Assembly: GCA_028700115.1 (NCBI GenBank)
Contig: JAQVTI010000008.1
Coordinates: 1-32,000, forward strand
DNA: 32,000 nucleotides
DNA from: Candidatus Iainarchaeum sp.
Lineage (GTDB): Archaea; Iainarchaeota; Iainarchaeia; Iainarchaeales; CSSED10-239
Direction: 5' to 3'
Below are positions 1-27,374 of this stretch, piece after piece. A program made the position numbers and the translations under genes. The notes beneath the pieces were generated by a model. It did no database searches and was not told where the DNA came from. It saw only the letters and a list, made by a program, of their open reading frames with translations. How positions within the stretch are numbered: the stretch's first letter is position 1; every line of letters starts with the position of its first letter.

Positions 1-710
1 GTTCTCATAGCTTGAAATCCTCTCCAAGGAATATATATCTTATATGTTCTTCTATCTAAAACAGGCTTTTGAATAACTTCATTATTTTTAAGTCTTTTAA
101 CTGTAACTTTAGGAAGCTTTTCAAAGTTTTCATCAGATAAATTTTCTCCTGTCAAAGTTATATAAAATGAACCAGTACATTCATCTGAATCTATTTCACA
201 ATTTACAACATCTAATTTTTCTCCTGCATCTAAAAACATCTGAGCTACAATTTTATTAAATTCAGATTCATTTTGAACAGTATTTACAAAAACTCTATAA
301 CCTATAGGGGATTTTGTAAATTCTAATTTATTTAAAATAGATTCAGAAAAATAACCAGTTACATTTCTTCCAAAAAATACACTATACCCCATAGAATTTA
401 CAAACTCATCCCAGGGCATATAAATTTCTTTTCTTGTAAGAGTAGTATAATTATCAGAACTAGATTTTACTTCTTCCCATTTTGTTCTAAAACCTAAAAC
501 AAATAAATTAAATGCATCTGCTTTTGATAAATCTGCAATTGTAGAAAGATCTGAATTAGAAGATTTTGATTCTATTAAATTCAAATTAGTTTCTTCAGTT
601 GCAACCATATTAAAAACTAAAACCAGACTCATAGATATAAGCATTAAAGAAACTAAAGCTGTAAAAAGATTAAATCCTTTTTCTGATTTTATAAAAATAT
701 TATATTTCAT
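1..710 (-). CDS. Type IV pilin-like protein with a class III signal peptide; partial, C-terminus lies beyond the window edge
   Basis: Absent from the ORF track because it runs off the window. My minus-strand translation from the ATG at 710..708 stays open to position 1: MKYNIFIKSEKGFNLFTALVSLMLISMSLVLVFNMVATEETNLNLIESKSSNSDLSTIADLSKADAFNLFVLGFRTKWEEV... A short basic N-terminus ends in K-G and is followed directly by a ~22-aa hydrophobic helix. That is the prepilin/archaellin-type signal pattern. It is co-directional with, and 183 bp downstream of, the giant ORF. Confidence 0.5.
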   Translation of the reverse strand, partial: MKYNIFIKSEKGFNLFTALVSLMLISMSLVLVFNMVATEETNLNLIESKSSNSDLSTIADLSKADAFNLFVLGFRTKWEEVKSSSDNYTTLTRKEIYMPWDEFVNSMGYSVFFGRNVTGYFSESILNKLEFTKSPIGYRVFVNTVQNESEFNKIVAQMFLDAGEKLDVVNCEIDSDECTGSFYITLTGENLSDENFEKLPKVTVKRLKNNEVIQKPVLDRRTYKIYIPWRGFQAMR

Positions 711-893
711 TTATAAAAAATATAAGAAGAAGAGCTTATAAATATTTTTATATATCAAAAATAAAAAAATAAAAAAAGTTTTTAAAAAAAATATTTTATA
801 AATTAAAAATTAATTTTAAAAAAATTATATTTTCTAAAATTATAATTATCTAAAAATTATTTTATTCTAAAATAATCTTTTTTAAAATAAATA

Positions 894-3800
894 TTAATTT
901 GAATTTAATCCAAAGTTTACAATTGAACAATTATCAAGTCTACTATCAGAAGTTATATTTGTATCAACTGTAGGACTAATAGTTAAAATATATCTACCAT
1001 GTGAATCATCTAAATTATTTTCTTCTAGAACAATTTGGTATAAAATATTTTTAGAAAAATCTACAGGTTCAATAATTGAAATTGAATTATTTAATAATAC
1101 AGCACCATTAGTTCTAACATTTTTAGAACCTACTATATTCCCTATAATCCCACATCCAATACCTCTTAAAAGACCTGCACCCATAGATGTTAATCTTGAT
1201 CCTCTTCTAACTGCATGATTTGTAGTATTATTTACATTTGAAATAAGTCTACTATAATCATTTGCAACATCATCTGCATAAGTATATACTCTTGTAGCTC
1301 CAGTTCCTGTAGGGGTACCTCTTTGAACAATATGTTCTAAATCTGTTAAATCTTTATTTAAATTATTTAATACATCTTTTGACTTTTTAAAATCATCTAA
1401 TGTCTTTTTTTCAACATTACTTAAATGCCTTCTATGTTCTAATTTTTTAATTTCATTTTCAACAGTATCTAAATTATTTTTCAAAATAGTCTTTTCAGTT
1501 GAAATATTATTTAATAAATCATCATATTCTGATTGGGTTAATTGCTTTACAGAAGAATTTATAGAAGACCCAGCTGAACTAGCACCAGCTGAAGCTGTTA
1601 AAATGTTTACTCTATTTTCTAATTTTAAAAATAACCCATTTCTAGAATTAAATATAGATTTATAAACTTCATCTGGACCTTTTAAAGAACCAGTTACATT
1701 AACTCCTCTAAAATTATTATTTCCACCAGTTACAATTCCCACTATTTTTTTAAACTCATCTAAATCTGCAGAAGTATTAATTTTAGTATAATCAAAACTT
1801 ACAGTTAAAGTTCCTGAATTTTTTAAAATTGAAGAATTTCTAATAATATTTAAAATTTCAGCATCACTATATATAGTTGAATTAATATATTTTATTTTAG
1901 AACCATTTGCAAATGAACTTATATACATTTTATTATTATGTAAATTATCAAATGTTGCTCTTAAATATTCATCTAAACTATGTGTGGTTTGTGTACAACG
2001 TATATTTGGAACTACTGGATTTACTGGATTTACTGGATTTGGGACAACAACTGTTGGAAGATCATCTAATAAAGATATGGTTTGAGAACTTGTTCCAATA
2101 GGTCTTGTTCTATTTAATCTAATTCCTGCAAAAACTCCAGAAATTACAGACATACTTTCGTCAAAAAAACCAGAAATATTCTCTGCAACTCTAAAAGAAT
2201 CTCCAACAGGCAAAATATCCATAATAAATTTATCAATTGCAACATCAAGTCCTTCAGAAGTATACCCATTTAATAAAATCCCAATTGAAGGAATTCCACA
2301 AGAAAATATTCCACAATCTATTAAAATATCTTTTAAAAATTTAACTTGCCCCGCAATTGGAATTAATAATAATATACCATCTACTGCAGCAGTACATGCA
2401 GAACAAGAAGCCATACATCCAACAAAATATTTTTCTGCATTATCTGTATATTTTTGTATTCTTGCTTTTTCTTGACTACTTGTAATATCTATATCACAAT
2501 CTAAAGATGCATATTCATAAAACCCAATGGCATCTGGATTATTTATATTATATTTTCTAATAACTTCACAAATATTTTCTGAATCTAGATTTGAATATGA
2601 ATTTTGCCAATCTACTAAAGCATATAATTCTAATAAATTAATCTCTTTATTTTGATTATCATAATTTTCAATTAACTCAGAAGTTTTTTCTAAAACATCT
2701 AAAGGAGTAATTCCACAACTAGATAAATGAATAATTGCTTCTGTTTTTCTTAAAGATAATTCTCCTGTTGCTTTATAAATACTATTTGCAGTAACTATAA
2801 TATCTTTTTCTACAAAAGCATTTATATTAGAATTTAATGGTACAAAACATATTTGTGTTTTAGAATAATTTTTATCAACAATATCTAATATGACATTTTC
2901 TAAAATATTATTATTATTATCTTTAAAATAAACATCTAAATTATTAGGACCTTTTACAGAAAGACTTACTCTTTCATCAATTCCAGAAGTTATTTCTAAA
3001 TCTTGACATCTTTCAAAATTATTTATTGGGATAGTAAATTCATCTTTTTTAAATTTTAATTCTCCAGCTTCTATTAATTCTAAAACTAATAAAGATTTTC
3101 TATCTTCTGTAATACATAATTTTGCAAAATCTTCTTTTGCTAAAATTCTACTAATTATTTTTACAGAATCTGAAACAACTTTTTCAGGAAGCTTATTATT
3201 TGTAAAATTTTCATATTTATTATTTATAATTAAATTAATTTGTTCGCCTTTTATTAAATTTTGAGAATAATCATAAAAACTGATTTTTGCAAGAGCTTCT
3301 TTATTTTCTGTAATTTTATCAATTGATGATTTTAAAATATTGTTTTTTAAATTTGTTTGTGAATTAAAAATAAATCTATTATCTGTATCTTTAAAATAAT
3401 TTAAAGAATCTATAACGCCTTTAGAAATTTCTTCTTCTCCAGTAAAAAGAGTAAGCCATGTTCCATAATTATATTTATTTGTAAGATCTAAATCCCATGG
3501 TATAAAATTTAAAAAATTAGAAATATTTTTAACACATTGATCTGTTTGTTTATATTCTATTAAATTTACATAAAAATAAACTCTATCTGGAAATATATGT
3601 TCATTATTTGCAGCAACAAATCCATCAACTTCAATAGTATATCTTCCACATCCTTTTATTCCATTTGTAAAAAATATTCTATTCCCAGAATTATAAAGTC
3701 CATAAACTTCTTTTGGAGTTGAGGTATATGGATTTACATCAACCATATATTTATTAAATTTATAATTTGTATTTTTTAATTCATTATATAATAAATCATC

Positions 3801-6800
3801 AGAAACATAATCATTTTGCATATAAAAAGTAAACTCAATAGGTTCAAGTGTAGATCCTAAATCAGAAATTGAACAAAACCCTTTAGCAGCATCAATAGTT
3901 GAACAACTTGTATTTGATAAAATATTTTGAGAATGTGCTGAAACTTGTAATATTTCTGAATATAATTCATTTATTTTTTCTAAAATTAATTTAGATACTG
4001 CAGAAGCATCACAATATCCATTTGTTGAACAATTTTTAGAAGATGAAATTATTGGGAATGTAATTAATTCTATTTTATTTGGATCTTGACATACAGAAAT
4101 TTCTATTTCTTTTGTTTGTTCTATATCTTTTAAATTATCTTGATCCTCTGAATAAATATTAATTGATGTAAGAATACTTTCTGAAGAAACATACCCTCCA
4201 GATGTTGTTTGTCCAACAATTGTAACTGGCATTGATGGATTTAATTTAAAATCATTAGCATATAAATCTAATGCAAATTGAGACATTCCATTTAATGGAA
4301 TTGTTTGATAACCTGAAGTAGGATATATACTAATTAAATTATTCCCAAAAGTCTCAAAATAACCAGCCCTACTTTTATCAATTCCAATAATTGTAACAGG
4401 CTCTGCACAATTATTTGTAATGGTTATATTTTTAGATCTTCTTTCTCCAATATTTAAATTATAAGAAAGCTTTTGAGGGGATATTTTTAAACAATTTGGA
4501 GATGAAATTAAAAATACAACTTTAATATAAGATACAATAGGGTCTCTTACTCCTGCAGCAGTTCCTTTTATAACAAAATACATATCATCAAAAGTAGATT
4601 TATTCATACTTACTTGAAATTTTAAATCAATTGGAACCATTTTTCCAGGTTCTAAAATTTCAATTTCTCTAGGATATTCTGTAACTGCCATATTCGATGA
4701 AACCCTTTCAGGATATTTACTAAGTTGTATATTTGATATAGGTATATTCCCTATATTTTTTATCCAAAATCTAACAGTAGTTATTGCTTGTTGTTGGGTT
4801 ATTACTTGTGTCATAGGGACAGTTACTATTTGTGGGGTTACCCATAAAGAATTACTTAAATCTAATAATTCTACATTTAATTTTGTAGGAGATAAAGAAT
4901 AATAATCATTATTCCATAAAATATTATAATTATATGTCTTTTTTTGAGTTCTATCTGAATTATTTTCAATAATTATATTATATAAAATTTCTTCTCCAGA
5001 AAGCACTGTAACATCTGTTAAAACAATATCAAGTTCATTATTAGAATTTGTTTTTTCTAAAATAAGTTCAGGATTAATTGTAACAGCTTTTTCACAGGAG
5101 TTATAAATTGTAAATCCAACTGTATTTTGAGAAGATCCTTTTGTATTTTTAAAAAGGCTTGAATAATATTTATTAAATCCATCTGAATAATAATTTATAT
5201 TATTATTAGTTTGATAAACATCTCCATAATAAGAACTTGTTTGACCTCCTAAAGAAGAATTATAAGAACTTTCATAATTATTATTATAAAAATCTGTATA
5301 ATCTGTAGAAAAATATTCATTTTGAGAATAATCATTATTTATTCCAACATAAGTATTTATTTCTTCTGGTTTAATTACTAAACAATCATCTATAACCAAA
5401 CCTTTTATTATTCTAACAGGTATTAACTTTGCAACTTGCCTATTTCCTATAAGCCCATATATAGGTATTTTTGCAATTGCAGAAGTAAATTGTGAATCTT
5501 TTGAAGCAGTTGCAATAATTTCAAAATTGGTATTTGTATTTTTTAAAATAGTCACTGGTCCTCTAATATCTAAACTTAAAGAATCTGCTTGCTCTATCCA
5601 TATTGGTTCTCCAAAACTTATATCTGTTACAATTGTATCAGATAAATTTTCAATAAAGAAAGACTTTATTTCACTTGATTGAGAATTCCCTAAATTTATC
5701 AAAATTTCCTTAGGGGTATTTAAAACCCCATCATCTGCGATAAGTATTTCTCTAGTATAAGGCTTATAACCATATGCAGAAACTGTAACATTTATTTTAT
5801 TTACTACGAAATCAACCTTTACTTTATAAACCCCTTTTTTTCCATTAAGATTATTTCCTTGAAATGAAGATATTAATTGATTATATTCATCTTCTATTTT
5901 AATAAATGCATTTTCTATAAAATTTCCATTTGTAGAATCAAATACTTCTATTTTTATATCAGAACCATATGAAACAATATAATCTGGGGTAAATAAAACA
6001 TTCATATTTCTTTTTTGGAAAATATCAAAATTTATTCTTTCGTTAATACCTTCTAAAGAATCAGAATAAATTAAAGTATCAATATAAGATATCCCAATAT
6101 TTTTTGCAATAAAAAATACATAAACTTTTTTTCTAATACCTGCATCTAATGATATTGTAGGTTGTGTAATATTATATTGAGAAATTGTTTCAAGATTAAT
6201 ATTTGTTGGATAAGAAAAATTATTTCCAGTTGAAATAAATGAAATTATAGGTTTTGTATTTGATGTAGAAACATCAAAATTAATAGTTGTATTTTTAAAA
6301 CTAAAAAATGTTGCCTCAAGAGCATATATTTCATCTTTTAATGCTATAAAATTATCTTTATCAAAATCAATTCCATCTTCAGAAATAAATTTATAAGATA
6401 CACAAACTTCATCTTTACAATTTAAAGGAATATCAAAAACATCTATTTCTATATTTTTAGATTCAGCATATAAAAATTGTTTAGAAGAATTTGATTTTTT
6501 ATCTAAAAGAACAGAATCAATTGGATCTCTATAATAAGAATTATCTATTTTATCCCAAACTCTATATTCAAAAATTGCTTTTAATTTAGAAGTATTTACA
6601 ACATTTACTTTTATTTTAATTTGCTTTGTTCCAATATCTTGAGATTGTTTCCAATAAAGTTCAACCCATTTATTTATTTGCCCAGCTTTTCCTTCATTTA
6701 AAAAATCAACATCTTGATTTCCAGGTTCTGGTAAATAATTGTATGTTGTAGAATATCTAAAATCTGTAGAATCAGATAAAAATCCAGAAATACCATAACT

Positions 6801-8810
6801 CATATTTTCAGAATCAATTTCAAGATCATCTCCAGCTCTAATATGTACCCCACCTTCTTTTACATTTTTTGGGAAAAAAACATCAAAAATAAGATAATAA
6901 TCTTTTCCTTCTGATAAAAAATTTACAGTTTTTCCAAAAGAATCTTTTATTTCTACAAATTCTATTATTGGATAATTCCCTTCAAGATCATTTTCTGGAT
7001 TTGTAATTGTAATACTTACAAACCCATCTTCATCTAAATTTTCTAAAGAAAAAGGAATTGTTGTAATATTCCCATTTTCATCATAATAATCTGCAAAAAA
7101 TTCAGAATATCCTATATTATTAAAAAATATACGACCTTGATTTAAATCATCATCAAAAAGAACAGTATTATCTTTTGTTCTAATTGTTAAATGACCATCA
7201 TCTATTAAACTACCATCTTTATTTAAAATTTCTAAATCTACTAAAATATCTGCTTTATCTATTACAAATATAATTTTATTTTCTAAATAATCACTTATTG
7301 TAATATATTCAGAAATAGTTAAATCACCTACAAACACTTCAACTGCAAATTGTGAAAAGTTTTCTAAAGGAATAGATAAACTACCAGTTAAATCTACAGA
7401 ATAAATTTCTGAATATGGGAGTATTAATTCATCTTGAATTTTATAAATTCTTATTTTTGCAGAACTTACAGGTAAATTTTTACTATCTACAACAAATATA
7501 TTTAATAAAGAACTATTGTCTATTTTAATTTTTTCTAAAAAAATATCCTCTTGATTTTTTTCTTTTAATGAAATTTTTTTAACAGAACATAAATATGAAT
7601 CTTTACATGCAGAAACAATAATATTTGAATCATTTTCTAAACCTGAAAATATAATTTTTCCAGAAAAATCAGTAATATTTGTATCTATAACATTATTATT
7701 TAAATCATAAATTGTAACTTTTGAATCTTCTAAAGGAATATATTGATCTAAATCTAATATATTTAAAGAAATTGAAGAACCCCCAACTTCTAAAATTATT
7801 GGAATAATTTTTTCTAATTCTAATATTCTATAAGAAGTTTGATTATCACTAAAATTAGTTCTATATCCTTCTTTTGAAACACTAAAATTTATTGTTTCTC
7901 CAGAATTAACTTTTATCAAAGCCTTCCCATCAATTGTTTTTGTAGTATCAATTAAATTTCCTTCAAGATTATATACATCAACAATTGCATCATTAATTAA
8001 ATTCCCAGAAATATCATTTACTATAAAAATAACATCTGACTTCCCAGAAAAAGAAATATCTGAACTAATTACTAAATTTATTTCTTTTGTTTCAGAAGGA
8101 TTTATAAGTTTAAAATTTCTAATTACAAAATCTTCATAATTATCTGCTTTTATTAAAATATCTGATGTTTTATTTAATGGAACATCTAAAATTATATTAT
8201 AATTATCTTTTTCTAAAGAATTAAAATTTTGATTAAAATCTTGACCATTTAATTTATATGAAATTGTTGCAATTGAATTAGGAATTATTTTTTTATTATC
8301 AGAATCATATATTATTAATTTTAAAGAACCATATTCTATAATTTCATCAAAAGATATAATAATTTTATCATTTTTAGAAATTATTGTAAATTCTTTACTA
8401 AAAGATACATATCCTTCTTTTTCTGCTTTTAAGGAATAAACTTTTCCAATTTTTAATTTTTTATTTGTAATCACATCTTTATTATTTATATTCCCAGAAA
8501 AAATATTGTCTTTATCAACAGAATTAATTTTTAAATAAACATCATTTATTTCAAAATTACTATAATCATAAATATTAAATTCCAAAGATACTTTTGGAGA
8601 AAAGATACCAATTAATAAAAAAATTAAAATTAAAATAATTATTAAAAAGATACCTCCAAAAACAGCAACTGGAGGAATTCCCTTATCTTCTAACTTTTCA
8701 TTAATAGAATTTAAATTAATTCCTTTTTTTGTAATCCAATCTGAAAATTTATAATAAATATTTTCAACATAGTTAAATAATTTTGAAAAAAAATTTTGTT
8801 TCTCACTCAT
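894..8810 (-). CDS. Giant (2,638 aa) membrane-anchored surface/adhesin-like protein with repeated beta-sandwich domains
   Basis: An uninterrupted 7.9-kb ORF in a genome where random ORFs are short. The N-terminus has ~47 polar residues and then a TM helix (VAVFGGIFLIIILILIFLLIGIF). At least 7 segments of ~85-95 aa follow the CarboxypepD_reg/PEGA-like pattern, for example VIFIVNDISGNLINDAIVDVYNLEGNLIDTTKTIDGKALIKVNSGETINFSVSKEGYRT and KINVTVSAYGYKPYTREILI. Later segments look CARDB-like (VRFWIKNIGNIPISNIQL, SKNITITNNCAEPVTIIG). No catalytic motif was recognised. Confidence 0.85.
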   Translation of the reverse strand: MSEKQNFFSKLFNYVENIYYKFSDWITKKGINLNSINEKLEDKGIPPVAVFGGIFLIIILILIFLLIGIFSPKVSLEFNIYDYSNFEINDVYLKINSVDKDNIFSGNINNKDVITNKKLKIGKVYSLKAEKEGYVSFSKEFTIISKNDKIIISFDEIIEYGSLKLIIYDSDNKKIIPNSIATISYKLNGQDFNQNFNSLEKDNYNIILDVPLNKTSDILIKADNYEDFVIRNFKLINPSETKEINLVISSDISFSGKSDVIFIVNDISGNLINDAIVDVYNLEGNLIDTTKTIDGKALIKVNSGETINFSVSKEGYRTNFSDNQTSYRILELEKIIPIILEVGGSSISLNILDLDQYIPLEDSKVTIYDLNNNVIDTNITDFSGKIIFSGLENDSNIIVSACKDSYLCSVKKISLKEKNQEDIFLEKIKIDNSSLLNIFVVDSKNLPVSSAKIRIYKIQDELILPYSEIYSVDLTGSLSIPLENFSQFAVEVFVGDLTISEYITISDYLENKIIFVIDKADILVDLEILNKDGSLIDDGHLTIRTKDNTVLFDDDLNQGRIFFNNIGYSEFFADYYDENGNITTIPFSLENLDEDGFVSITITNPENDLEGNYPIIEFVEIKDSFGKTVNFLSEGKDYYLIFDVFFPKNVKEGGVHIRAGDDLEIDSENMSYGISGFLSDSTDFRYSTTYNYLPEPGNQDVDFLNEGKAGQINKWVELYWKQSQDIGTKQIKIKVNVVNTSKLKAIFEYRVWDKIDNSYYRDPIDSVLLDKKSNSSKQFLYAESKNIEIDVFDIPLNCKDEVCVSYKFISEDGIDFDKDNFIALKDEIYALEATFFSFKNTTINFDVSTSNTKPIISFISTGNNFSYPTNINLETISQYNITQPTISLDAGIRKKVYVFFIAKNIGISYIDTLIYSDSLEGINERINFDIFQKRNMNVLFTPDYIVSYGSDIKIEVFDSTNGNFIENAFIKIEDEYNQLISSFQGNNLNGKKGVYKVKVDFVVNKINVTVSAYGYKPYTREILIADDGVLNTPKEILINLGNSQSSEIKSFFIENLSDTIVTDISFGEPIWIEQADSLSLDIRGPVTILKNTNTNFEIIATASKDSQFTSAIAKIPIYGLIGNRQVAKLIPVRIIKGLVIDDCLVIKPEEINTYVGINNDYSQNEYFSTDYTDFYNNNYESSYNSSLGGQTSSYYGDVYQTNNNINYYSDGFNKYYSSLFKNTKGSSQNTVGFTIYNSCEKAVTINPELILEKTNSNNELDIVLTDVTVLSGEEILYNIIIENNSDRTQKKTYNYNILWNNDYYSLSPTKLNVELLDLSNSLWVTPQIVTVPMTQVITQQQAITTVRFWIKNIGNIPISNIQLSKYPERVSSNMAVTEYPREIEILEPGKMVPIDLKFQVSMNKSTFDDMYFVIKGTAAGVRDPIVSYIKVVFLISSPNCLKISPQKLSYNLNIGERRSKNITITNNCAEPVTIIGIDKSRAGYFETFGNNLISIYPTSGYQTIPLNGMSQFALDLYANDFKLNPSMPVTIVGQTTSGGYVSSESILTSINIYSEDQDNLKDIEQTKEIEISVCQDPNKIELITFPIISSSKNCSTNGYCDASAVSKLILEKINELYSEILQVSAHSQNILSNTSCSTIDAAKGFCSISDLGSTLEPIEFTFYMQNDYVSDDLLYNELKNTNYKFNKYMVDVNPYTSTPKEVYGLYNSGNRIFFTNGIKGCGRYTIEVDGFVAANNEHIFPDRVYFYVNLIEYKQTDQCVKNISNFLNFIPWDLDLTNKYNYGTWLTLFTGEEEISKGVIDSLNYFKDTDNRFIFNSQTNLKNNILKSSIDKITENKEALAKISFYDYSQNLIKGEQINLIINNKYENFTNNKLPEKVVSDSVKIISRILAKEDFAKLCITEDRKSLLVLELIEAGELKFKKDEFTIPINNFERCQDLEITSGIDERVSLSVKGPNNLDVYFKDNNNNILENVILDIVDKNYSKTQICFVPLNSNINAFVEKDIIVTANSIYKATGELSLRKTEAIIHLSSCGITPLDVLEKTSELIENYDNQNKEINLLELYALVDWQNSYSNLDSENICEVIRKYNINNPDAIGFYEYASLDCDIDITSSQEKARIQKYTDNAEKYFVGCMASCSACTAAVDGILLLIPIAGQVKFLKDILIDCGIFSCGIPSIGILLNGYTSEGLDVAIDKFIMDILPVGDSFRVAENISGFFDESMSVISGVFAGIRLNRTRPIGTSSQTISLLDDLPTVVVPNPVNPVNPVVPNIRCTQTTHSLDEYLRATFDNLHNNKMYISSFANGSKIKYINSTIYSDAEILNIIRNSSILKNSGTLTVSFDYTKINTSADLDEFKKIVGIVTGGNNNFRGVNVTGSLKGPDEVYKSIFNSRNGLFLKLENRVNILTASAGASSAGSSINSSVKQLTQSEYDDLLNNISTEKTILKNNLDTVENEIKKLEHRRHLSNVEKKTLDDFKKSKDVLNNLNKDLTDLEHIVQRGTPTGTGATRVYTYADDVANDYSRLISNVNNTTNHAVRRGSRLTSMGAGLLRGIGCGIIGNIVGSKNVRTNGAVLLNNSISIIEPVDFSKNILYQIVLEENNLDDSHGRYILTISPTVDTNITSDSRLDNCSIVNFGLNSN
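2014..2040. repeat. Perfect 3x tandem 9-nt repeat (actggattt) inside the giant ORF, encoding a PVNPVNPV linker
   Basis: Read directly: actggattt actggattt actggattt at 2014..2040. On the minus strand this encodes ...VPNPVNPVNPVVPN... It also creates the spurious plus-strand ORF 1907..2101 (LLDLLDLLDL). Confidence 0.95.
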
Positions 8811-9535: not shown

Positions 9536-9835
9536 CTATTTTTCTTTTTCTTTTTTAAAATTAATATTAATTAATTGATTAACAGAATAAATCTTTGTTG
9601 CATTTTTAATTTTAACAACAGGTATATTAATTTCTCTTAAAAATATAAAAATATGAGATAAAAAAGATCCTTTTTCTACAATAATACCATTTACTTTTGA
9701 TAAATAAGGTAAGATATTTAAATTTAATTCTTCAATAACTAAAACTTTATTATTTAAATTTACTTTATCTAAATCTTCTAAATTATTAAATAAAACACAT
9801 TTTCCAAAAATATTTCCTTTTACTAAAAATTCCAT
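9536..9835 (-). CDS. Stand-alone PEP-utilizing-enzyme mobile (swivel phosphohistidine) domain protein
   Basis: GIIVEKGSFLSHIFIFLREINIPVV matches the PEP-utilizers motif G-G-x-T/S-H-x-x-I-x-A-R-E-x-G-IP-x-V. Compare [20 protein letters not shown] in the ppsA of this same window. The candidate His is retained. I moved the start from the track's TTG (9844) to the ATG at 9835, which lies only 9 nt after the TAG of the upstream ORF. Confidence 0.6.
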   Translation of the reverse strand: MEFLVKGNIFGKCVLFNNLEDLDKVNLNNKVLVIEELNLNILPYLSKVNGIIVEKGSFLSHIFIFLREINIPVVKIKNATKIYSVNQLININFKKEKEK

Positions 9836-9844
9836 AATTATCAA

Positions 9845-10372
9845 CTACAAATATTTTATTTTTAAAAAATTAAACGTACTATTCACCATACGTTCAATAG
9901 AACCTTTATCAACTTGTTTAAAATCATAATTAGTAAAATCTTTCTTATTATCAATAATTTTAATATTTAAATCTTCTTTTAACCCTAAATTTTTCAAAAT
10001 ATTTATAATAGCATATTTAATTTTATCATTATTTGAATTAAATTTTTTTAATTCATTTATTTTAGGAAGAATACCTAAATATAAATATTCAGAAAATATT
10101 CCAGAATCTAAAAGGTGCCCTGTTATAAAAAATTTTGGAGATTCAATTATTTTTAAACAAATAATAAAAGAATAATCTTCAAATAAATATTCTTTATAAA
10201 AATAATTATTCTTTACAAAAAAATTAGAACATAATCCTCTAAAGATAGGCGATTCAATATTTAAATTAAATTCAGCGAATAATTTAAATTTTTTATAATC
10301 TTGTAAATTCATTTTTTTAAATTTAGATAAATTATATTTTTTATCATAATTTAATTCAAAATTATATTCCAA
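9845..10372 (-). CDS. Hypothetical protein with no ATG start (TTG in the track); possible remnant or frameshifted gene coupled to the swivel-domain ORF
   Basis: This is a 175-codon ORF. The frame is open for another 27 codons upstream (YRPLDTPKNIYNLVLDTLIKKRKDPT) with no ATG or GTG. A second frame further upstream (10441..10539) reads ...KCFFGIYSTNCDDWSGDDIDL* and also lacks a start. No family was recognised. Confidence 0.35.
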   Translation of the reverse strand: MEYNFELNYDKKYNLSKFKKMNLQDYKKFKLFAEFNLNIESPIFRGLCSNFFVKNNYFYKEYLFEDYSFIICLKIIESPKFFITGHLLDSGIFSEYLYLGILPKINELKKFNSNNDKIKYAIINILKNLGLKEDLNIKIIDNKKDFTNYDFKQVDKGSIERMVNSTFNFLKIKYL

Positions 10373-24848: not shown

Positions 24849-24857
24849 GTGATAAAA

Positions 24858-27374
24858 ATGAGTTTAGATTTTTCAAAAAATATAATTGTTGGAAGAAAAG
24901 AAAGTCATATTGAAAAATATGGAGAAAAAGCAACAGGGTATATTGGAAAAGTTGTAGTTTCTGGGGGAGAAGATCCTGTTTTAGGAAAAAAAATATTAAT
25001 GGATTTATCTAGATCACACGTAGCAATTATATGTGGAAAACGTGGTGGAGGGAAATGCCTTCATGAAGATACATTAATAACTTTAGATGATGGAAGAGAA
25101 ATAAAAATTAAAGAATTAGAAAAAAATAAAAATAAAGTTCTTTCAATAAATAAAAATTTAAATATAATTTCTAATAAAAAAGATGAATTTTTTAAAAGAA
25201 ATGTAAAAAGTATGCTTAATGTAAAATTAAGAAGTGGAAAAGAACTAAAATTAACAAAAGAACATCCTTTATTTACAATTAATGGATGGGAACCTATTAA
25301 TAAATTAAAGAAAGGATCTAGAATAGCAACACCTAGAATAATTAATAATTTTGGAAATAAAAAAATTACTTTAGAAGAAATAAAACTAATTGCATATTTA
25401 TTATCAGAAGGTAATTTATCTAATAATTTAGTATTATTTAATAATACTGATAAAAAAATAATAGATGATTTTAAAAAAAGTATAAAAAAATTTGATAAAA
25501 ATTTACTTATAAAAAAACATAGTGACTTTGATTTCAGAGTAATTAAATCAAAAAAAAGTAAAGAAAAAAGTAGTATTAGAAAATATTTAGATAAAATTAA
25601 AATTTACGGAAAATTAGCTCATGAAAAAGAAATTCCTTCACAAATATTTCAATTATCTAAAAAAGATTTAAGCTTATTTCTAAATAGAATGTTTAGTTGT
25701 AATGGATGCATATGCTATGATATAAATAAGAAAGCATGGAGTATAAATTATTCTACATCATCTAAAAAAATGTCATTTCAAATACAAAGTTTACTTTTAA
25801 AATTTGGAATATTATCAAAAATTAGAACTAAAAAAATAAAAAAAAGACTTAATTATGAAATAGTCATATTAAAACAAGATAATTATAAATATATTAAAGA
25901 AATTAATTTTTTTGGAAATAAAAAAGAAAAATCAAAAAATATAAAAATTAAAAAAAATAATAACCTAAATATAGATACAATTCCTAAAGAATTATGGAAT
26001 ACATATAAGATTAAAAACTTTACAAAAATAGGAAAACAATTTGGATATAAAGTACCTAAATCTTTTAGAACTTGTGTAAATTATTCTCCTTCAAGACAAG
26101 AACTTAACAAAATTGCAGATATTGAAAAAAATAAAAATTTAAAAAATTTAGCAAATTCAGATATATTCTGGGATGAAATAATAAATATTAAAGAAATTAA
26201 AGGAAATTTTACTGTTTATGATATAACTGTTCCAGAAACACATAATTTTATTGCAAATAATATTATAGTACACAATAGCTACACTATGTCTGTAATTATG
26301 GAAGAATTTGCAAAACAACCATTTGAAATAAAAGAAAGACTTTCTGCAATTATAATAGATACTGTTGGAATTTTTTGGACTATGAAATATGAAAATAAAG
26401 AACTCCCACAAGACTTATTAGATAAATGGGATTTAAAAGCAAAAGGAATTGAAATTAGAAATATGATTCCTTTTGGGAAAAAAAATTTTTATGAAAAAAA
26501 AGAAATACCTTTTGACCAACCTTTTTCAATTAAGACATCTCAAGTAGACTTAGAAGATTGGCTTGCTTTATTTAGGCTTACTTGGAAAGACCAAGAAAGT
26601 TCTCTTCTATCAAGATCAATTGAAGAGATTAGAAAAAAAGTAGGAAACTTATATGATATTGATGACATTATAACAATTTCTCAGAAAGATACAGAAACTA
26701 CAAAAGAAACAAAAGATTCTTTAATTGGTAGATTAAAAGTTGCAAAATCATGGGGGCTATTCTCAAAACAAGGAACAAGTATGAAAGATTTTGCAAGAGC
26801 AGGAACAATTACAACAATTGATGTTTCTACCTATAAACAAGCAATTGGAATGGAATCAATCCAAGAATTAATAGTTGGTCTTTTAGGAAAAAGATTATAT
26901 GAAGAAAGAATGCTTTATAGAAAAGAAGAAGAAAAAAATTTACTAATAGGTAAAAAAAAAGAAAGTGAAATGCCAATTGTTTGGATGATGATTGATGAAG
27001 CACATATGTTTATGCCTCAAGACAGACCAAGTATGGCACTAGATGTATTATTACAATGGATTAGAGTTGGAAGACAACCTGGACTTTCTTTACTTCTTGC
27101 AACCCAAAGACCAAACAAATTACACTCTGAAGCAATATCTCAATGTGATTTCTTTTTAAGTATGAGAATGACTGCTCAAGAAGATATACAAGCAGTTTCT
27201 GCAATTAGACCAAGTTATTTAAAAATTCCAATGGATAAATATTACGCACAAATGCCAAAAACACAAGGTTTTGCAATCTTAGTAGATGATAATTCTGAAA
27301 AAGTTATGATGCTTAAAATAAGACCTAGAATAACATGGGATGGAGGAAAAACTGCTAATGTTTTTTCTGATTAG
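24858..27374 (+). CDS. HerA/FtsK-superfamily (DUF87-like) P-loop ATPase precursor containing an intein
   Basis: The extein sequence reads ...HVAIICGKRGGGK|intein|SYTMSVIMEEF, so splicing restores the Walker A motif GKRGGGKS. Walker B is IVWMMIDEAHMF. A HerA-like sensor region reads LLLATQRPNKLHSEAISQCDFFLSMRMTAQEDIQAV. The mature protein would be ~431 aa. The track start GTG (24849) is a GTGAT SD, so I use the ATG at 24858. Confidence 0.8.
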   Translation: MSLDFSKNIIVGRKESHIEKYGEKATGYIGKVVVSGGEDPVLGKKILMDLSRSHVAIICGKRGGGKCLHEDTLITLDDGREIKIKELEKNKNKVLSINKNLNIISNKKDEFFKRNVKSMLNVKLRSGKELKLTKEHPLFTINGWEPINKLKKGSRIATPRIINNFGNKKITLEEIKLIAYLLSEGNLSNNLVLFNNTDKKIIDDFKKSIKKFDKNLLIKKHSDFDFRVIKSKKSKEKSSIRKYLDKIKIYGKLAHEKEIPSQIFQLSKKDLSLFLNRMFSCNGCICYDINKKAWSINYSTSSKKMSFQIQSLLLKFGILSKIRTKKIKKRLNYEIVILKQDNYKYIKEINFFGNKKEKSKNIKIKKNNNLNIDTIPKELWNTYKIKNFTKIGKQFGYKVPKSFRTCVNYSPSRQELNKIADIEKNKNLKNLANSDIFWDEIINIKEIKGNFTVYDITVPETHNFIANNIIVHNSYTMSVIMEEFAKQPFEIKERLSAIIIDTVGIFWTMKYENKELPQDLLDKWDLKAKGIEIRNMIPFGKKNFYEKKEIPFDQPFSIKTSQVDLEDWLALFRLTWKDQESSLLSRSIEEIRKKVGNLYDIDDIITISQKDTETTKETKDSLIGRLKVAKSWGLFSKQGTSMKDFARAGTITTIDVSTYKQAIGMESIQELIVGLLGKRLYEERMLYRKEEEKNLLIGKKKESEMPIVWMMIDEAHMFMPQDRPSMALDVLLQWIRVGRQPGLSLLLATQRPNKLHSEAISQCDFFLSMRMTAQEDIQAVSAIRPSYLKIPMDKYYAQMPKTQGFAILVDDNSEKVMMLKIRPRITWDGGKTANVFSD
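25056..26276 (+). mobile_element. 407-aa intein with a LAGLIDADG homing-endonuclease domain, inserted in the Walker A loop
   Basis: The Cys1 codon TGC is at 25056 (block A CLHEDTLITLDDG). Block B is LTKEHPL (TxxH). LAGLIDADG motif 1 is LIAYLLSEGN and motif 2 is LSLFLNRMFSCNGC. Block F is VYDITVPETHNFIANN and block G is IIVHN, ending at 26276. The +1 extein residue is Ser (AGC at 26277). The length is in frame: 1221 nt. Confidence 0.85.

Follow-up and report, generated by a model that had tools for sequence, protein, structure and literature searches.

A conserved C-terminal head with an apolar Cys-rich hairpin and a highly variable internal region in a giant membrane-anchored protein of Iainarchaeota

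INTRODUCTION

Giant proteins of DPANN archaea have been reported from more than one lineage. The genome of Candidatus Forterrea multitransposorum encodes five membrane-anchored proteins of more than 1,800 amino acids (aa) within a 42-kb region, and a presumed role of this lineage's giant genes in cell-cell interaction has been mentioned in passing in the literature (PMC5905446). In Pacearchaeota and Woesearchaeota, murein-like lytic-transglycosylase proteins (fam00969) reach up to 3,000 aa (PMC8204110). Here, we analyse a giant protein of Candidatus Iainarchaeum sp. encoded in the first 32,000 nucleotides of contig JAQVTI010000008.1 (assembly GCA_028700115.1), a stretch referred to below as the window. 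The genome belongs to the Iainarchaeota (Diapherotrites, DPANN) and comprises 0.96 Mb in 47 contigs, with 23% GC. The gene, named giant-1, is a single open reading frame (ORF) on the minus strand (894..8810) and codes for 2,638 aa that comprise an N-terminal cytoplasmic motif, one membrane anchor, a beta-sandwich stalk of about 1,950 aa and a C-terminal head.

Giant-1 shares with the published DPANN giants the lineage (Ca. Forterrea carries a homolog), the giant size, the N-terminal anchor and the proposed role in cell-cell interaction, and its relatives also share the murein hydrolase domains at the tip. In contrast to the hydrolase giants of the PMC8204110 kind, the window protein has no recognisable hydrolase. 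Neither report (PMC5905446, PMC8204110) describes the C-terminal head, its apolar hairpin, its Gly-rich junction motif or its cassette-like variability, and the literature searched contained no phylum-wide anatomy of such a head, no mention of an enzyme-less Forterrea genus and none of hypervariability confined to a head cassette.

THE HEAD OF GIANT-1 IS A CONSERVED MODULE

The starting point was a sequence-only reading of the window, which had placed a Cys-rich hydrophobic hairpin, a PVN linker, a heptad coiled coil and a Gly-rich hydrophobic segment at the end of the protein, about 2,050 aa beyond the N-terminal anchor (aa 48-70). All four elements do exist in one ORF, with coordinates shifted by a few bases, and the distance is correct. 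Set against the rest of the protein, the apolar stretches and the heptad region also stand out beyond chance. The ORF carries every peptide quoted in that reading and is unchanged when read with translation table 4 or table 11; on the opposite strand, the head region holds no ORF of at least 100 aa (table 11).

The head (aa 2025-2638; all its features lie on the minus strand) opens with a helical pre-hairpin subdomain (SSCGITP...ALVDW...; aa 2025-2127, 2430..2738) with conserved Cys2032, Cys2081 and Cys2105 and predicted helices at model residues 12-29 and 50-66. The first apolar Cys-rich stretch, YFVGCMASCSACTAAVDGILLLIPIAG (aa 2128-2154, 2349..2429), follows. Its C-x3-C-x2-C spacing, invariant in eight family members, puts three Cys on one helix face, and the stretch is modelled as a helix (model residues 87-120) with a predicted local distance difference test (pLDDT) score of about 68-74. 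The loop QVKFLKD (aa 2155-2161, 2328..2348) leads to the second stretch, ILIDCGIFSCGIPSIGILLNGY (aa 2162-2183, 2262..2327; model helix 129-159), in which Asp2165-Cys2166 and Cys2171-Gly-x-Pro2174 are invariant, Cys2171 even phylum-wide. The loop is deleted in half of the genus, and alignments locate this 7-residue indel exactly between the two stretches, which is expected for the turn of a hairpin.

Behind the hairpin come acidic amphipathic helices (aa 2184-2256, 2043..2261), short and of low confidence in the AlphaFold2 model, and the Pro-rich PVN linker PNPVNPVNPVVPN (aa 2257-2269, 2004..2042; first given as 2004-2057), at whose position the relatives have Pro/Thr-rich linkers of differing sequence. 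A small alpha/beta subdomain (aa 2274-2364, 1719..1991) precedes the coiled-coil region found by a heptad scan (aa 2424-2495, 1326..1541), which is predicted to form an antiparallel helix pair. Here heptad a/d periodicity runs over at least 28 residues free of Pro and coincides with predicted long helices; a crude a/d scan of the whole protein scores only aa 1-42 and aa 2402-2547. The Gly-rich motif MGAGLLRGIGCGIIGNIVG (aa 2543-2561, 1128..1184; first given as about 1135-1195) reads G-x-G-C-G-x-x-G-N-x-x-G and is the best-conserved motif of the C-terminal half, with the phylum-wide form G-[KR]-G-x-x-C-G-x-x-S/G-N-x-A/x-G. The protein closes with a small beta domain (aa 2562-2638, 897..1127) of three predicted strands, in which F2585, N2588, Y2591, Y2607, D2626 and C2628 are invariant in the family; it ends in an R-x-D-x-C motif, 10 residues past which the window protein terminates. 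A disulfide between Cys2553 of the Gly-rich motif and Cys2628 of the terminal motif was considered and dropped, eight lineages holding one of these Cys and lacking the other.

The head is a real conserved unit. When its last 598 aa were used as a single query, 16 proteins matched among 1.84 billion representatives, mostly at the C-terminus of proteins whose complete versions measure 2,600-3,000 aa (several others are shorter and probably partial), so the module is rare outside the phylum Iainarchaeota. The same single sequence matched 18 of the 21 other genomes of the window's family, and word-indexed homolog searches returned only the window protein itself or six close relatives. A profile built from 11 heads reached much further: 20 of the 22 family genomes and 104 of the 215 phylum genomes (39 of 79 genera), among them homologs in Candidatus Diapherotrites, Ca. 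Iainarchaeum and Ca. Forterrea multitransposorum (L013). The matches nearly always terminate open frames of about 2,100-3,450 aa, the shorter frames lying mostly at contig ends. The homologs retain its segments. No fusion of the module to another N-terminal stalk was seen among them, and their full-length proteins align throughout.

The proposed conservation of the Cys pattern holds at one level only. Within the family, nine head Cys are invariant (2081, 2105, 2132, 2136, 2139, 2166, 2171, 2553 and 2628), whereas phylum-wide just three of the five hairpin Cys are kept, in the pattern Y-[LF]-G-x-C-x6-C ... D-C-x-x-P. The apolar hairpin itself is retained across the phylum, with a length of 36-56 aa, 2-9% charged residues (22% in the protein overall) and 28-67% Gly, Ala, Ser or Cys.

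Structure prediction of the head (AlphaFold2, aa 2025-2638, 11-sequence alignment) gave a mean pLDDT of 50 and a predicted template modelling score (pTM) of 0.28, with helices on both stretches, a helix over the Gly-rich motif, the three terminal strands and the coiled-coil pair at aa 2426-2459 and 2465-2496 (model residues 402-435 and 441-472). The alpha/beta domain was the best-predicted part of this model (pLDDT mostly 66-78 over model residues 250-340, falling to about 50 at 270-290). Prediction of aa 2025-2214 alone raised the mean pLDDT to 60.6 and the pTM to 0.38; the two hairpin helices of about 32 residues were best in this subdomain model (pLDDT 68-74), and no compact domain was predicted around them with confidence. 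Foldseek searches of both models against the Protein Data Bank (PDB) found nothing at E <= 0.001, and sequence and profile searches of the head against Pfam, NCBIfam, PHROGs and PDB gave just weak coiled-coil-type matches. The top Foldseek names (the alpha-pore-forming toxin SmhB, TolQ and complex II anchors) had E > 1 and were given no weight. The head is not a recognisable globular fold, and burial of the stretches in a domain of known fold, which would have spoken against the sequence-only reading, was not found with these low-confidence models.

SEQUENCE VARIABILITY WITHIN THE HEAD

The part of the head between its conserved edges is the most variable region of the gene. The clearest case came from two loci in genomes assigned to different species, L101 (G004:C1:232500-243500, Ca. 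Forterrea) and L102 (G005:C14:2500-13500). Their nucleotide identity is 93-99% over 11 kb, except for about 1.35 kb at about 60%, and this divergent stretch starts just before the hairpin and ends at the Gly-rich motif. At the protein level the identity before, inside and after it is 95, 34 and 97%. The counterpart in the window spans 1128..2429 on the minus strand and so nearly coincides with the 1135-2429 of the sequence-only reading. The same region was the least similar part in nearly all 28 genus pairs, and comparison of the window protein with family members gave 32-51% identity in the stalk, 35% in the hairpin block, 12-17% at aa 2201-2500 and 24-25% at the end.

Judged from these alignments, the head appears to behave as a recombining, swappable cassette with conserved edges, and the G004/G005 pair looks like a clean example of allelic replacement by recombination. 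Recombination has been reported for Ca. Forterrea, which is consistent with cassette replacement (PMC5905446). Such variability is typical of surfaces that meet a changing partner cell.

ENZYME DOMAINS BEHIND THE HEAD IN RELATIVES

The position immediately behind the head is where relatives from other lineages carry enzymes. The following assignments lie above the Pfam curated cut-offs unless stated otherwise. SLT domains follow the head in L063, L068, L080 and P0020, the last of which also carries a GDSL lipase; Amidase_2 occurs in L063 and L072; Amidase_3, Glucosaminidase and NlpC/P60 are combined in L070; Glucosaminidase occurs in L079 (in L072 it stays below threshold, with 22 bits against a cut-off of 30.2); and P0003 carries NlpC/P60. 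Other proteins stop at this point: those of the window's genus (g1), of the g5 relative G013 and of three unplaced relatives (P0004, P0012 and P0013) end no more than about 15 residues past R-x-D-x-C. Relatives of genus g4 add a tail of about 180 aa with invariant Cys and His; with E = 0.09-0.1 by Pfam and PDB profile it was not assigned to NlpC/P60, and it is left uncounted as an enzyme.

To our knowledge, archaea of the Iainarchaeota group have no murein, so the enzyme tips would act on another, most likely bacterial, cell. The suggestion in the sequence-only reading that this end is more than a passive adhesin tip gains weight from the relatives: because murein hydrolases and a lipase are fused straight behind the head, a passive tip is unlikely. 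The murein hydrolases downstream of the head in relatives, together with the Pro/Thr-rich linkers, also place the head outside the cell.

PROBABLE PARTNER CONTACT AND A POSSIBLE ROLE OF THE HAIRPIN

The reading favoured here is that giant-1 presents a distal contact head whose apolar hairpin engages the membrane of a partner cell; as a whole chain, it is held tentatively, at somewhat less than an even chance. The N-terminus would anchor giant-1 in the archaeon's own membrane, and the stalk of about 1,950 residues would hold the head away from it. The head would then work in three parts: a conserved helical subdomain bearing the apolar, Cys/Gly/Ala-rich helical hairpin; a variable middle (Pro-rich linker, alpha/beta domain and coiled-coil hairpin) that probably sets partner specificity; and the conserved Gly-rich motif with the small beta domain, the putative junction at which most other lineages fuse wall-cutting enzymes. 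Following contact, the hairpin would insert much as the marginally hydrophobic helical hairpins of colicins do, or in the manner of hydrophobic segments in tape-measure proteins of phages. Proteins of the window's genus end at this junction, so that their head would work without an enzyme of its own. The parts of this reading differ in strength. That the head contacts the envelope of a partner is likely; that the hairpin, given contact, dips into or inserts in the partner membrane is close to a toss-up, leaning slightly to the negative.

The hydrophobicity of the hairpin bears directly on this second part. It is the most hydrophobic stretch of 56 aa in the protein beyond the first 175 or so residues (mean Kyte-Doolittle value of 1.33, with no more than 0.76 elsewhere). 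The two stretches reach Kyte-Doolittle values of 1.84 and 2.02, above the classical threshold of 1.6, yet their summed transfer values are +3.2 and +3.8, and many homologs have only 36-40 aa here or carry charges. On the same scale the N-terminal anchor scores -6.6 and the Gly-rich segment +5.9, and no other 19-mer falls below +5. Outside the anchor, sums under +6 are confined to 19-mers of these three apolar stretches. Such marginal values mean that the stretches could pass the archaeon's own translocon, as expected of late-inserting segments.

Several observations weigh against insertion and against the wider reading, and they are taken together here. The transfer values are simple sums on the scale of Hessa et al. 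2005, without position terms, and by them the Cys-rich stretches, the most apolar parts of the ectodomain, are only marginally hydrophobic. Conserved Asp2165, Pro2174 and Gly residues interrupt the stretches, and in many lineages (L063, L066, L068) the apolar stretch is 36-40 aa long, is rich in Gly at its centre or includes Lys or Glu. The near-invariant Asp and the conserved Cys would suit a structured, possibly cross-linked core as well, and the low confidence of the AlphaFold2 models leaves room for a novel compact fold in which the hairpin might be buried. The Gly-rich segment is a conserved motif and no membrane span, because it contains conserved Arg/Lys and Asn. Further, no murein hydrolase domain was found by Pfam in the window protein (P0001). 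Amidase_2, Amidase_3 and Glucosaminidase had no match in five genomes of its genus, of which one is complete, and the three of these genomes tested for SLT and NlpC/P60 lacked matches to both, in both cases with models that divergent enzymes could escape. The window protein having no enzyme tail, the enzyme evidence applies to it through homology of the scaffold only. The proposal of the sequence-only reading that this end inserts into a partner membrane is thus left unsupported by the hydrophobicity: the stretches are marginal beside the anchor, and the Gly-rich segment offers no span.

Four other explanations were weighed. The main rival keeps the contact head and makes the hairpin the core of a soluble helical domain, buried there and stabilised by disulfides or a bound metal, so that the head would only recognise and adhere and, in relatives, present the enzymes. 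The positive summed values of both stretches fit such a core, as do Asp2165, Pro2174 and several Gly conserved within them and the charges found within the stretch in some lineages. The three-Cys face of stretch 1 (C-x3-C-x2-C) opposite a C-x4-C helix recalls disulfide-stapled helix-loop-helix proteins, to which the twin CX3C/CX9C proteins belong, and the paired invariant Cys of the stalk make cross-linking plausible in giant-1. The number of Cys in the hairpin is, however, odd and varying (5, 4, 3 or 2), so no fixed disulfide pattern is conserved. A segment of 36-56 residues with 2-9% charge would be unusual in a soluble surface domain, AlphaFold2 gave no compact packing of the hairpin in either model (pTM 0.28 and 0.38), and no soluble fold was matched. 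On balance this explanation is possible but rather unlikely.

Less likely than the main rival are two explanations that keep giant-1 among its own cells. If the stretches formed a hairpin that crossed the membrane of the archaeon itself twice, the stalk would be a loop tethered at either end, with the coiled coil and the enzymes of relatives near the cell's own surface. The stalk of about 1,950 residues would have no evident purpose if both of its ends stayed at home, and the loop QVKFLKD, whose weakly basic charge (+1) fits the positive-inside rule together with the acidic sequence after stretch 2, is missing in half of the genus. The stretches are indeed the most apolar segments after the N-terminal anchor, but with sums of +3.2 and +3.8 they are marginal, Asp, Pro and Gly interrupt them, and in many lineages they are too short or too charged for two spans. 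Moreover, the hairpin sits at the edge of the hypervariable, apparently recombining cassette, which is unexpected of a housekeeping anchor and hard to reconcile with one. Such a double anchorage is therefore quite improbable, and so, to the same degree, is the explanation in which the head links the archaeon to others of its kind or forms a surface lattice or sheath by coiled-coil oligomerisation, with no role toward foreign cells. Self-association would suit the coiled coil, the small-residue helix-packing motifs and the window's genus, where wall-cutting enzymes are not recognised; it would leave unexplained why most other lineages, being archaea without murein, fuse bacterial-wall hydrolases to the scaffold. 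Hypervariability is also more typical of a surface set against a changing foreign partner, although self-recognition systems can diversify too.

The remaining explanation goes beyond the favoured one and makes the head a self-contained device for envelope penetration. Once contact is made, the Cys-rich hairpin would be released, perhaps by reduction of Cys cross-links, and would insert into the membrane of the partner; the coiled-coil hairpin would then fold back and bring the Gly-rich segment and the stalk to the inserted hairpin, and a cytoplasmic bridge would be opened or stabilised by which the archaeon, with its reduced genome, obtains metabolites. We consider this improbable. If true, the device would be the cellular counterpart, of non-viral kind, to fusion or translocation machines, and its allelic cassettes would match different hosts.

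ANCHOR, STALK AND NEIGHBOURING GENES

The remainder of giant-1 is conserved along its whole length. Six family members align with it end to end at 30-47% identity, and 18 phylum members at about 20% from N- to C-terminus, with Cys and Gly columns invariant throughout; the alignment covers the KGIP motif and anchor, the stalk and the C-terminal head. The N-terminal membrane anchor (aa 48-70, 8601..8669, minus strand) has a Kyte-Doolittle value of 3.37 and is directly preceded by KGIP, and K29, G30, G44 and P46 are invariant in the phylum alignment ('...EKGI...FLE.KGIP'; aa 1-70, window 8601-8810). The stalk has weak Pfam matches to CarboxypepD_reg and bMG3 and carries paired invariant Cys along its length (C402/C408, C798/C803, C1440/C1468 and others).

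The invariant N-terminal motif runs straight into the hydrophobic helix, and the other two giants of the operon open in the same manner (L019, L020, L081-L100). This 'KG/IP + hydrophobic helix' arrangement looks like a class III (prepilin peptidase) site whose leader, at 44 aa, would be unusually long. On this resemblance, the giants might be processed or assembled in the manner of pilins.

Directly downstream of giant-1 lies a pilin-like partner gene, of about 560 aa in relatives and cut in the window by the contig end (3..710, minus strand). It carries a canonical class III (prepilin-type) signal, MKYNIFIKSEKG/FNLFTALVSLMLI, with the site KG/FNLFTALVSLMLI, and has no Pfam or NCBIfam match. 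The relatives L018 and L022 have a gene of 548-563 aa directly after the giant gene, and in L023 the downstream gene is also cut by the contig end. Beyond the pilin-like gene, a region that the contig of the window no longer covers, relatives carry two further giants, which share the N-terminal motif and anchor but have no apolar hairpin. One of these, giant-3, ends in C-terminal sequences that are unrelated between two genomes of one genus, G002 (L019 419-5533) and G004 (L020 9298-14901). One tail contains 'GDFIGY...GYFAIYLG', the other is Cys-rich, and neither has a Pfam assignment; such unrelated ends within one genus point to tip swapping on other giants too. The tail in G002 resembled NlpC/P60 by eye, and this was rejected, PF00877 matching nothing in that genome.

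In the distant relative L018, which carries P0019, the region immediately upstream of the giant gene (1-5930) holds a type IV pilus-type ATPase (T2SSE), a platform protein (T2SSF, a weak match), two small ORFs and an EpsH/exosortase-like protein. A linkage to type IV pili was considered and not retained: T2SSE and T2SSF adjoin the giant gene only in L018, and T2SSE homologs lie elsewhere in the window's genus. Just upstream of the giant gene, L022 (1475-3340) encodes a radical-SAM/SPASM protein of 621 aa with a fused PEP-utilizer swivel domain. In the window, 9536-10372 (minus strand) holds a 102-aa swivel ORF (46% identity over 54 aa, E = 3e-9) and a 175-aa ORF without detectable similarity. 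The swivel ORF may be a decayed remnant. A radical-SAM/SPASM maturase for the Cys-rich head was also rejected, the gene being present only in L022, the window having the swivel fragment only, and G004 and G002 having nothing similar. Genes in the neighbourhood of giant-1 also code for NurA, an M48 peptidase, a PPDK/PEP-synthase-type enzyme, an XPD-type helicase and an intein-containing protein. The last is an 841-aa ORF (24849-27374, plus strand) whose intein has a LAGLIDADG homing endonuclease (Intein_splicing E = 1e-28).

COMPARISON WITH KNOWN SYSTEMS

Across the phylum, this analysis delimits a giant protein in whose gene the distal head is the most variable and apparently recombining part, and it singles out a cassette of about 430 residues as the likely determinant of specificity. 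It bears on how DPANN archaea with sub-megabase genomes attach to cells and extract resources, and on the hosts of Iainarchaeota, since the bacterial-wall hydrolases on the head in most lineages point to bacteria as partners or prey. The window's genus, which includes Ca. Forterrea and keeps the head without a recognisable wall hydrolase, provides a natural contrast for the role of the head itself, and aa 2025-2638 are of a size suited to expression and to assays with liposomes and with the envelopes of cells.

Class I viral fusion proteins have a trimeric core in which two heptad regions form a six-helix bundle that joins the fusion peptide and the anchor. The head of giant-1, likened to fusion-type modules in the sequence-only reading, recalls them in that its helical hairpin or coiled coil, placed distally in a membrane-anchored protein, has an apolar element on either side. 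Unlike in these proteins, in order and in spacing, the hairpin is separated from the coiled coil by about 240 variable residues and an alpha/beta domain, and the second apolar element is no span; no sequence or fold similarity to class I fusion proteins was found (low-confidence monomer models). Pore-forming colicins, the diphtheria toxin T domain and Bcl-2-type proteins have a hydrophobic helical hairpin that inserts after contact. The predicted hairpin of giant-1 is alike in several respects: about 40-55 residues long and tightly turned, it is helical, modestly hydrophobic, rich in small residues and flanked by amphipathic helices. The hairpin of giant-1 differs in being Cys-rich with an invariant Asp, and in sharing no fold or sequence with them: a colicin-type pore-forming domain, which is a ten-helix globin-like bundle around a buried hydrophobic hairpin, gave no sequence match and no Foldseek match at E <= 0.001, which with low-confidence models is a weak test of fold.

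The tape-measure protein Pb2 of phage T5 reportedly combines a coiled coil, hydrophobic segments and a C-terminal muralytic domain. Enzyme-bearing relatives of giant-1 share with tape-measure and tail-tip proteins this succession of long helices or coiled coil, marginally hydrophobic segments and then a peptidoglycan hydrolase. They differ in sequence and family (for tape-measure families, PHROGs gave one unannotated family at E = 0.06 and Pfam none) and in that the head stands on a cell-anchored beta-sandwich stalk, outside any tail tube; the window protein, moreover, is enzyme-less. The giant surface filaments CdiA and Rhs, which belong to the contact-dependent and polymorphic toxin systems, have a conserved scaffold and exchangeable C-terminal enzymatic tips past a conserved junction, with a cognate immunity gene downstream. 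In contrast to CdiA and Rhs, giant-1 varies internally as well, between hairpin and coiled coil, its relatives bear wall hydrolases and not intracellular toxins as tips, no immunity gene was seen, the downstream gene being conserved and pilin-like, and there is no sequence relationship. What they have in common is a conserved junction followed, in relatives, by variable tips, together with variability that appears to be driven by recombination. The enzyme-tipped relatives of giant-1 extend the published remarks on the giant proteins of DPANN archaea (PMC8204110, PMC5905446).

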